From a virus (Duplodnaviria; Heunggongvirae; Uroviricota; Caudoviricetes): a DNA stretch of 18,129 nucleotides. Made by a program: the position numbers and the translations under genes. Shown here one piece after another: positions 14,370 through 16,591 of the stretch. How positions within the stretch are numbered: the first letter of the stretch is position 1; the number at the start of each line of letters is the position of its first letter. The stretch is taken from the IMG/VR virus record IMGVR_UViG_3300012281_000006; one strand, written 5' to 3'. Below the pieces are notes generated by a model that saw only the letters and a program-made list of their open reading frames with translations, searched no databases and was not told the origin of the DNA.

Positions 14370-16384
14370 AAGAGCTGTGCTATGGATCTGTTTGCAGTGG
14401 AATTGAAGCCGCGAGTATTGCCTGGGAACCGTTGGGTATGCGTCCGGCGTGGTTTGCTGAAATCGAGCCTTTTCCATCAGCCGTTCTTGCGCACTGCTGG
14501 CCCCATGTCGCAAACCTTGGCGACATGACAAAACTTGCCCAAAAAGTCCTGGCTGGGGAAATCGAATCCCCTGATGTGCTCGTCGGGGGAACACCTTGTC
14601 AGGCATTCAGTATCGCGGGATTAGGTGGTGGGCTTGATGATGAGCGTGGCGCGCTAACTTTAAAGTATGTGGAGCTTGCAAATGCAATTGACGACAAACG
14701 GGCTGAGTCATTTCTCAAACCAGCAGTTATCGTATGGGAAAATGTCCCAGGAGTCTTGTCATCGGCAGATAACGCCTTCGGATGTTTCCTTGCCGGATTG
14801 GCTGGAGAAGATGCGCCATTCGAACCAGGTGATCGACCTGAATCAGGAAAAAGTAACGCGTTCTGGCGGTGGGATGTCAAAACCGGTTGCCATGCTCCAA
14901 AGTGGCCGCAGTGTGGTTGTATTTATGGACCGCAGCGAAAAGTGGCCTGGAGAATCCTTGATGCCCAATACTTCGGAGTGGCACAACGACGCCGACGCGT
15001 GTTTGTTGTCGCAAGTGCTCGAACAGACCTCGATCCCGCAACGGTACTTTTTGAGTTCGAAGGCGTGCGCCGGAATATTGCGCCGAGCAGAGGCGAGGGG
15101 AAGGAAACTACCAGATATACTTCAAACATCGCTATCAGATCTTGCGATGATACAAACATAGTTGCCATGGCACATGGGCAAGGAGGGGCTGAGATAAAAA
15201 CCGATAATTCGGCACCAACTTTGACATGTAACCATGAAGCACCAATTGTATTGCTCGGCGACGGTAGAATGCGCCGTCTTACCCCTGTCGAATGTGAAAG
15301 GCTGCAAGGTTTTCCTGATGGACATACATTGATCCCTACGGGAAAGCGTAAAAAAGTTTCTTCAGATGAGCTGGCATGCCTTCGCAATCACTATCCAGAT
15401 TTAAGCGAAGAAGAGGCCGCGATGTTTGCAGCTGACGGACCGCGTTACAAAGCGATCGGCAATAGTATGGCGATACCAGTAATGCGCTGGATTGGCGATC
15501 GGATTACCAAGGCTGCATGTCGGCAGAATGAAGGGAATGAAACAAAAGAGCGAAAAGTTAAACCAGCGGCAGAATTCGAACGGTCCATATTCAAATGGGC
15601 TGGTGGAAAATTTGGTGTTCTGGAACAAATCTTTCGCTATTTGCCAGAAGGGAAGCGCCTGATTGAACCTTTCGTTGGTGGCGGAGCTGTCTTCATGAAT
15701 GCCGGATACAAGGAAAATCTGCTAAATGATGTGAATGCTGACCTGATTAACTTTTACAAGATTTTGCAACGTGAGGAACGTTCACTTATCACTCTGGCGC
15801 ATCGGTTTTTCCAGGACTACAACACACAGGAAGGATACCTGGCAGTACGGAATGCGTTTAACAAACAAGTCTATGATGATTTACATCGCGCAGCGGCGTT
15901 TTTGTTCCTGAACCGACATTGTTTTAACGGATTGACGCGTTACAACCAGGCCGGTGAGTTCAATGTCGGTTATGGGAAGTATAAAACTCCGTATTTCCCA
16001 TTACAGGAGATGGAAGCCTTCCTCGGTGCGGAAGGGCGTTCTGGGTTTGTATGTGGTGATTTTGCTGTGGTGATTGAAGCTGCCGGAGAAGGAGATGTCA
16101 TTTTTTGCGATCCGCCATATGAACCGCTTCCAAATACAGAGGGATTCACGAACTATTCCGGTCATGACTTTAAGTTTGAAGAGCAAAAACGCCTGGTGTC
16201 TCTGTTGACAGATGCTCATCGCCGAGGTGCAAAGGTTCTCATTACTAACAGTGGCGCGCCAAATATCAGAGAGCTTTATCATGACAGTGGCTTCAGGGTG
16301 GAACCTCTTTTTGCCAGACGTTCTGTGTCTTGTAAGGGGGACACTCGAGGTGTAGCTCATGACGTTTTAGGTATATTGCTCTAA
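14366..16384 (+). CDS. dmt: Bifunctional DNA methyltransferase Dmt: N-terminal C5-cytosine MTase domain fused to C-terminal Dam-like N6-adenine MTase domain
   Basis: GTG start overlapping the hrdC stop; C5 motifs [43 protein letters not shown]; then Dam motifs [11 protein letters not shown] and FCDPPYEP. Confidence 0.9.
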
Positions 16385-16404
16385 TAAATTTATTAGTGTA
16401 ATAT
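16375..16404 (+). promoter_or_regulatory. Second P1-type late promoter (ATTGCTCTAATAAATTT plus -10 TAATAT), overlapping the last dmt codons
   Basis: Same box and same spacing to the -10 as the promoter at 13099. Confidence 0.55.
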
Positions 16405-16410
16405 CGACTC

Positions 16411-16591
16411 AATGAATCGTGATTTATAGAGCGATTTAGCTGTTAGCCGCGACAGGCGCGGCGGTAAGCATGGCTGGGCCTAGTCCTCCCAGACAAACCA
16501 CCGAGTTGCCAGGTTGACCATGCGCCTAAGTGGTAACACCGAAGTGCGTTACGAGCTTCCAGTTTGCCCATCTTCGGGTGGGCGTTTTTTT
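16411..16591 (+). ncRNA. Candidate small late RNA (~180 nt) from the late promoter to the terminator at 16566-16591
   Basis: No convincing ORF (longest about 15 codons); internal hairpins GCCGCG/CGCGGC, CTGGG/CCCAG, GTAAC/GTTAC; bounded by promoter and terminator. Confidence 0.3.
16566..16591 (+). terminator. Rho-independent terminator (GCCCATC-TTCG-GGTGGGC followed by GTTTTTTT)
   Basis: 7-bp GC-rich stem with TTCG tetraloop and 7-T run. Confidence 0.8.

Follow-up and report, generated by a model that had tools for sequence, protein, structure and literature searches.

What kind of RNA is made from the short stretch that lies between the end of the dmt gene and the next intrinsic terminator in P1-like phage-plasmids? 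The question was raised by an 18,129-nt stretch of viral DNA (Caudoviricetes; IMG/VR record IMGVR_UViG_3300012281_000006), here called the window, in which the dmt open reading frame (ORF) occupies positions 14366-16384 and no further terminator is found between its end and 16591. A first-pass annotation had noted at 16375-16591 a late-promoter motif followed by a non-coding interval and a strong terminator, and had proposed a candidate small late RNA. The analysis reported here keeps the RNA and assigns it to a different promoter. The region is likely to hold the control elements at the start of the early ban operon in a P1-like phage-plasmid, and the leader of this operon is probably a locus of the DicF type, giving an RNA of about 181 nt that ends at a terminator which would also gate read-through into the operon.

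The window belongs to a P1-like phage-plasmid. In a DNA search, positions 16300-17300 showed 97% identity to Salmonella phage SJ46 and 96% to phage P1, and the 191-nt leader was 100% identical to a Salmonella plasmid. The leader was present in 469 P1-like plasmid records, mostly of about 84-116 kb and non-mobilizable.

The C1 operator over the ban promoter

The 17-mer on which the late promoter had been based is present as a perfect match to ATTGCTCTAATAAATTT, overlaps the dmt stop codon (TAA, 16382-16384) and is followed by the TAATAT -10 element that had been reported with it (Table 1), but its label did not hold. By homology to the annotated records of P1 and P7, the 17-mer is identified as the C1 repressor operator Oban (Op72) on the early ban promoter. 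A second, inverted copy overlaps the first, and the two together form a bivalent operator lying over the sigma-70 promoter P1ban, in the same arrangement as in P1. Comparison with the Op72 locus of P1 (Oban a/b, P1ban/P2ban) revealed no difference of substance, the 17-bp operator being identical and the bivalent overlap, the -35 and -10 elements and the place at the end of dmt being the same. The operator annotation of P7 is the same as that of P1 and reads 'controls expression of tRNA ...'. Matches to the operator 17-mer numbered 3 in the window, compared with 0.10 expected in shuffled sequences. A third C1-operator-like site (ATTGCTCTAATAAATAT, one mismatch) lies at 13099-13115, upstream of the dmt region; it may be another repressor-controlled site, perhaps likewise taken for a late-promoter element in the first-pass annotation.

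P1ban was missed by a simple promoter scan because its -35 element fits the consensus at only three of six positions. The annotation of P1ban in P1 supports the promoter that had been placed here, and transcription is likely to start near 16411, as judged from the position of the -10 element. Since the motif is a C1 operator over a sigma-70 promoter, the transcript from this promoter (Pban) is predicted to be early, controlled by C1 and made on loss of the repressor. Thus, of the small late RNA originally proposed, a conserved, structured and non-coding stretch of about 180 nt up to the terminator was borne out, whereas its lateness was not. A late contribution to the leader RNA is possible only through transcripts reading through dmt, and these would also end at the 16591 terminator. 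As the recurring 17-mer is the C1 operator, findings that treat it as a 'late promoter element' need to be read again.

A conserved pseudoknotted domain in the leader

The leader contains a domain that is shared with lambdoid prophages and is called here the dicF-leader motif. A sensitive DNA search revealed 74-78% identity between positions 16447-16541 and segments in 43 lambdoid phage records. In phage mEp460 the homologous segment lies between the small ORFs on the repressor side and dicB, 25 nt upstream of the Rfam match to DicF (76.7 bits), which served as a positive control. In the Qin prophage of Escherichia coli K-12 a covariance model of the motif gave a match of 157.6 bits in the untranslated stretch that separates ydfC from dicF, and this match ended 8 nt before the annotated 5' end of DicF. 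The lambdoid loci tested contained the motif according to the model, and of 100 further sources only P1-like contigs did; HK022, D6 and every T1-, N4- or Vi1-like locus gave no match. A pattern scan of one genome per species detected the element in Escherichia, Shigella, Citrobacter, Trabulsiella and Erwinia.

The structure of the motif was drawn from an alignment of 36 distinct copies, and the types of base pair were counted in 77 parsed distinct copies. The core comprises about 110 nt and includes a pseudoknot, helix P2, in which a strand within the Pa domain pairs with the loop of helix P4. The junctions GGYAAG, CAGGUUGACCAU and GCYURAG are conserved and the copy in the window fits them, its types of base pair also agreeing with the family pattern; the unpaired nucleotides of the motif are conserved too. 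Paired cells amounted to 93% with this structure, compared with 30-57% when the partners were slid by 1-3 columns, and the observed covariation score was reached by none of 500 shuffles. RNAalifold independently recovered helices Pa, P3 and P4. The variable pair of P2 was U-A in 63 copies, C-G in 9 and U-G in 5, that of P4 was U-A in 62 and C-G in 15, and that of Pa was U-A in 71, C-G in 5 and U-G in 1; none of these pairs was ever mismatched. Helix P3 showed at least eight different stem sequences and length changes of 3 and 5 nt, with a loop that was always pyrimidine-rich. The GC-rich hairpins noticed in the first-pass annotation are present and covary across copies, and the region proved to be both conserved and structured in its relatives. 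The minimum-free-energy fold adds a hairpin at the 5' side of the motif, and this hairpin may take the place of a longer stem found before the motif in lambdoid prophages.

The motif matched no Rfam family when the mEp460 copy was searched at E<=10, and in the window no family covered 16405-16591 either at the gathering thresholds or at E<=10. Weak Rfam matches to RyhB, AgvB and nuoG (minus strand) were rejected, as they reflect the terminator hairpin only.

Relation to the DicF locus of lambdoid prophages

DicF arises from a long untranslated region after ydfC, the terminator hairpin forming its 3' end and an RNase E cut its 5' end, and transcripts that read through the DicF terminator reach dicB and are cut by RNase III (PMC5069750; PMC9438474). 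DicF is derived from the 3' untranslated region (UTR) of ydfC (PMC9438474). The locus in the window resembles the ydfABC-dicF-dicB locus of K-12 Qin (RF00039) in having a structured domain of about 110 nt directly upstream of the small RNA, and in the order of its parts: a repressor-controlled early operon, the domain, a short linker, a hairpin with a U-tail, and read-through to downstream genes. The 3' module of P1 thus holds the position of DicF, directly after the conserved leader domain and ending at an intrinsic terminator.

On the other hand, the DicF body, with its seed and its long stem (GGCGG.../...CCGCC), is replaced in P1 by a shorter, unrelated module in which a crude test detected no complementarity to ftsZ. 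In P1 about 27 nt separate the transcription start from the domain, whereas in the lambdoids the domain is part of a protein gene's 3' UTR and the likely promoter is about 850 nt away. Downstream of the P1 domain are the tmRNA-like RNA (tmRNA, transfer-messenger RNA), tRNAs, the tci genes and ban, compared with dicB in the lambdoids. Because the DicF body has been swapped for a different, shorter module, the locus appears to be of the DicF type without being a DicF gene, that is, a P1 variant of such a locus whose product would not be DicF. A hint in this direction was already known from the 'dicF-like region' of the P1 GenBank record; what is new is the pseudoknotted domain conserved upstream of DicF, together with the replacement of the 3' module.

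DicF is among the oldest known small RNAs, and it sits behind a conserved pseudoknotted domain without an Rfam family, in a region that the DicF literature examined describes solely as a long untranslated stretch. The fact that P1 keeps the domain and the terminator but swaps the small-RNA body suggests a modular locus, with a constant 5' domain and exchangeable 3' regulators.

The 3' module and the terminator

A hairpin followed by a T-run was found 41-91 nt after the motif in all 108 copies with enough flanking sequence. The 3' modules that follow the motif were of at least nine types, including the classic DicF, cdtI, pPE4 and P1 types. The P1-type module consists of GAAGUGCGUUACGAGCUUCCAGUUU, then GCCCAUC-UUCG-GGUGGGC, and then G + U7. 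The intrinsic terminator described in the first-pass annotation was found in its place, with a stem at 16566-16583, a TTCG loop and T7 at 16585-16591. Terminator-type patterns were not rarer than chance in the window (2 found by a simple scan, 2.9 expected), and the weight of this terminator rests on its conservation, not on the scan: all P1-like copies retain it, as does phage D6. In phage vB_Apl-pPE4 (locus L125, 2600-2760) the DicF-variant module behind the motif occurs twice in tandem, as identical units of about 85 nt that both have a terminator of their own.

The leader sequence GCUUCCAGUUU (16555-16565) is a perfect 11-nt complement to the Shine-Dalgarno region of nuoG, AAACUGGAAGC (K-12 nuoF-nuoG spacer, L149, about 7173-7183). 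The pairing had surfaced as a weak minus-strand Rfam match to nuoG (E=0.0055 on 101 nt, E=0.95 on 1.6 kb). Targeting of nuoG was set aside as probably due to chance, since about 0.3 such matches to ribosome-binding sites are estimated by chance and the P1-like variant L095 disrupts the pairing.

Proposed role of the leader RNA

By homology of layout with the DicF loci, the following course is most likely for P1. In the lysogen, C1 bound to the bivalent operator (16375-16402) would block P1ban. After loss of C1, RNA polymerase would start near 16411 and make a non-coding leader with a pseudoknotted core homologous to the domain directly before DicF in the lambdoid operon. The 3' module, consisting of the linker, the GC hairpin and the U-tail, would cause partial termination at 16591 and release an RNA of about 181 nt, and read-through past 16591 would carry transcription into the tmRNA-like RNA, the tRNA genes and ban. 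We infer that the 181-nt RNA accumulates, and that this RNA or a processed product acts in trans, in the manner of Hfq-type RNAs, or in cis on termination. Both alternatives that the first-pass annotation had offered, attenuation and read-through to the tRNA cluster, stay live.

Several points weigh against a DicF-type leader RNA. A literature search found no report of its expression; a preprint on the P1vir transcriptome does not mention it, and a 2025 review of phage small RNAs lists c4 alone for P1. The Rfam model of DicF (RF00039, gathering threshold 48 bits) gave no match at the gathering threshold, nor at E<=10 on 1.6 kb or on 101 nt. The duplex energy of the P1 module with ftsZ (-80 to +40) was no better than that of shuffled sequences (fraction 0.85), in a crude test that did not discriminate, since DicF itself failed to reach significance (0.17). 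The single-stranded 'seed' is very short in P1, and in the P1-like variant L095 it is interrupted by a 4-nt insertion. The double changes in P2, Pa and P4 divide few lineages (P1-like and P7-like versus lambdoids), so that the compensatory changes in these helices represent few independent events. The minimum-free-energy z-score was only -1.69; such folding is uninformative here because of the pseudoknot. The terminator, finally, could mainly serve dmt.

The last point leads to an explanation that we consider improbable, in which the hairpin and U-run are the dmt terminator, the conserved stretch is the 3' UTR of dmt and Pban transcripts are incidental. It would be in keeping with the absence of any other terminator between the end of dmt and 16591, with the derivation of DicF itself from a 3' UTR, and with the presence of the same motif on late dmt transcripts, which would follow. 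However, the motif is preceded by a promoter and an operator to which the P1 and P7 records assign control of the downstream operon, phage D6 keeps the terminator and the downstream block behind a different upstream region, and the motif occurs without dmt in all lambdoid loci. A product of another kind, a small protein, is very improbable. ORFs of suitable size exist on both strands and some GenBank records mark a 'hypothetical protein' here, but these annotated ORFs vary in position and length between phage records. The ORFs on the plus strand are small (at most 33 amino acids); they extend through the terminator and their frame is altered in P7, where the minus-strand ORF (16443-16775, 110 amino acids) is split into three frames. 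Base changes across the interval are compensatory and show no codon periodicity. The interval is non-coding, since the indels of 3 and 5 nt in helix P3 and the broken ORFs of P7 exclude coding. We give hardly any credence to the original proposal of an Lpa-dependent late promoter driving a small late RNA. Its arguments, the -10-like TAATAT and the repeated 17-mer, were both drawn from sequence alone and found no other support, and the 17-mer is the C1 operator. In P7 the -22 box of the annotated late promoter LPdam2 is AAGTTTCTT, which is unlike the 17-mer; nothing resembling this box lies upstream of 16399-16404 in the window, and the P1 and P7 records annotate no late promoter at this position.

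The main rival of the DicF-type leader is a device acting purely in cis, which we regard as possible but unlikely. The motif and the terminator would together form an attenuator, or the motif would be a processive antiterminator like put of phage HK022; either would set the Pban transcription that reaches the tmRNA-like RNA, the tRNAs and ban, and the terminated RNA would be a by-product. The regular occurrence of an intrinsic terminator 41-91 nt after the motif, always in repressor-controlled early operons whose downstream genes depend on read-through, agrees with such a gate, and so does the finding that the conserved part is the motif, including its unpaired nucleotides, and not the variable 3' module. 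P1 and the lambdoids share the motif although their regulators are unrelated, which would suit an RNA acting on the host RNA polymerase, as HK022 put does (PMC9378689), and a Pfam search of the upstream ORFs found DUF1391 alone and no N-like domain. On the other hand, the motif shows no similarity in sequence or structure to the put region of HK022, where the covariance model found nothing, and its distance from the likely promoter in lambdoids is large. The DicF terminator is known to terminate efficiently enough for DicF (PMC5069750), and no alternative pairing with the terminator stem was found. The likeness to put is one of position alone: a structured nascent RNA, independent of phage proteins, after an early repressor-controlled promoter and before the first terminator. 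HK022 put is built from two stem-loops of about 70 nt, has a triplex and lacks a pseudoknot, whereas the motif in the window is pseudoknotted. A cis device would be put-like in logic, not in sequence or fold.

A wider proposal, speculative and in our judgement doubtful, sees in the domain of about 110 nt an autonomous RNA device, common to P1-like phage-plasmids and lambdoid prophages, that acts on host transcription or processing and decides the fate of the terminator that follows. In P1 the outcome would be either the 181-nt RNA, with a regulatory role, or read-through into the tmRNA-like RNA, the tRNAs and the ban helicase gene, and the Pban leader would then amount to a set of two RNA tools directed at host gene expression and at ribosome rescue.

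Table 1. Coordinates of the sequence and RNA elements around the end of dmt and the start of the ban operon (window positions)
Feature	Positions	Strand	Remarks
Predicted second promoter P2ban	-35 16359-16364; -10 16385-16390	+	coordinates transferred from the prediction in the P1 record
C1 operator Oban-a (former Op72a)	16375-16391	+	perfect match to ATTGCTCTAATAAATTT; protein_bind 'phage repressor C1' in P1 and P7
Sigma-70 promoter P1ban	-35 TTGCTC 16376-16381; -10 TAATAT 16399-16404	+	17-bp spacer; P1 annotation
C1 operator Oban-b	16386-16402	-	inverted copy with 2 mismatches, overlapping Oban-a; annotated in P1 and P7
5' hairpin AAUCG...CGAUU	16415-16436	+	minimum-free-energy fold
dicF-leader motif, pseudoknotted	16438-16557	+	about 75% identity to lambdoid prophages; covariance model 97.9 bits at 16426-16557
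Helix P0	16438-16446 with 16548-16557	+	outer stem
Helix P1	16447-16451 with 16457-16461	+	hairpin
Helix Pa	16462-16465 with 16500-16503	+	stem
Helix P2	16468-16473 with 16518-16523	+	pseudoknot
Helix P3	16474-16478 with 16488-16492	+	hairpin, pyrimidine-rich loop
Helix P4	16505-16511 with 16531-16537	+	hairpin
Stretch equal to 'dicF-like region' of P1	16499-16600	+	P1 GenBank misc_feature 68791-68892
Single-stranded linker UCCAGUUU	16558-16565	+	where DicF starts in lambdoid loci; alignment and survey of downstream modules
Intrinsic terminator	16566-16591	+	GCCCAUC/GGUGGGC stem, UUCG loop, G + U7; scan and conservation
tmRNA-like module	16594-16770	+	directly after the terminator; unannotated
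Tag frame	16653-16685	+	GCA AAC GAT GAT CTG ATG ATG GTA GCG GCC TAA = ANDDLMMVAA*
First pseudoknot of the tmRNA-like module	16699-16704 with 16716-21; 16710-13 with 16730-33	+	
Second pseudoknot of the tmRNA-like module	16734-39 with about 16750-55; 16744-49 with 16764-69	+	

A tmRNA-like module downstream of the terminator

Behind the terminator lies a module that shares several features with tmRNA (SsrA), namely the context of the resume codon, a tag of ten codons of the ANDxxxxxAA type, a stop codon in a hairpin loop and H-type pseudoknots after the tag. Matches of 70-88% identity to this module were found in 327 phage records of unrelated families, including Ackermannviridae, N4-like, T1-like, Cronobacter and Vibrio phages, and almost none of them was annotated. 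The resume context before the tag reads UAAAU GCA AAC GAU. The tag frame had exactly 10 codons followed by TAA in all 124 loci fetched, which contained 25 nucleotide versions and 16 peptides (ANDDLMMVAA, ANDDVVLMAA, ANDEQFLAVA, ANEEMYLAVA and ANDNAYLMVA among them). The stop codon of the tag lies in the loop of a small hairpin, behind which come two pseudoknots of the H type. Covariation was seen in both stems of the first one, which occur as ACGGGG/CCCCGT, GCAAGG/CCTTGT and GTGAGG/CCTCAT in one case and, in the other, as GTCG/CGAC, CCGA/TCGG, CCAG/CTGG and CCAA/TTGG.

The module differs from tmRNA in having no detected tRNA-like domain, no PK1 and two pseudoknots only, and in scoring below the thresholds of ARAGORN and Rfam. 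The window and 115 related loci yielded no tmRNA in ARAGORN with default settings; the Rfam tmRNA score in the window was 25.7, compared with a gathering threshold of 47, and four other phages gave no match at all. No acceptor stem with G3-U70, T arm and 3' CCA of a tRNA-like domain was detected at the module, and of 92 contexts only 13 had a T-loop motif in the 330 nt that follow. The dicF-leader motif was considered as the missing tRNA-like partner and rejected, since it is absent from all T1-, N4- and Vi1-like loci that carry the module. A literature search found no description of the module.

The start of the tmRNA-like module (16608-16650; GGTTAGCGACTTTGCGGCGGTTTAG ... CTGACCATTAAAGT) resembles both ends of the dicF-leader motif (GTTAGCCGCGACAGGCGCGGCGGTAAG ... 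TTGACCATGCGCCTAAGT), which could be due to chance or be the remnant of a duplication. With its small-RNA locus, tmRNA-like module, tRNA-like stems and tRNAs, the ban leader would be a dense block of non-coding RNA in a very widespread family of phage-plasmids.

Other features of the window

Two further regions, 16779-16848 and 17214-17298, contain long stems (ACAACAGGTAAGGG... / ...CCCTTACCGTTGT) around a variable cargo, and such stems were also seen in L155, L256 and L153; in T1-like phages the same ACAACAGGTAAGGG/CCCTTACCGTTGT stems bracket cargo. Within the stem at 17214-17298 is a tRNA-like piece whose T arm (AGGGTTCGAATCCCT, 17263-17277) is canonical; P1 annotates there, on the opposite strand, the doubtful gene plp. 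The 3' half of these stems, GTGCTCTTTCCGTTGTGG, recurs in Trabulsiella prophages, where it forms the 5' edge of the dicF-leader motif; the Citrobacter and Erwinia copies have close variants of it. The two flanks of a dicF locus are joined directly in KpV2811, with nothing between them, which gives the locus a cassette-like look.

A tRNA-Ser (UGA), also present in phage D6, lies at 17687-17773; the P1 record annotates none between tRNA-Thr and tciA, and the nearest Rfam family is tRNA-Sec, below threshold (42 compared with 47 bits). At the other end of the window, positions 762-936 gave a full Rfam match to the sok antitoxin RNA (109.8 bits), which indicates a toxin-antitoxin locus of the hok/sok type.

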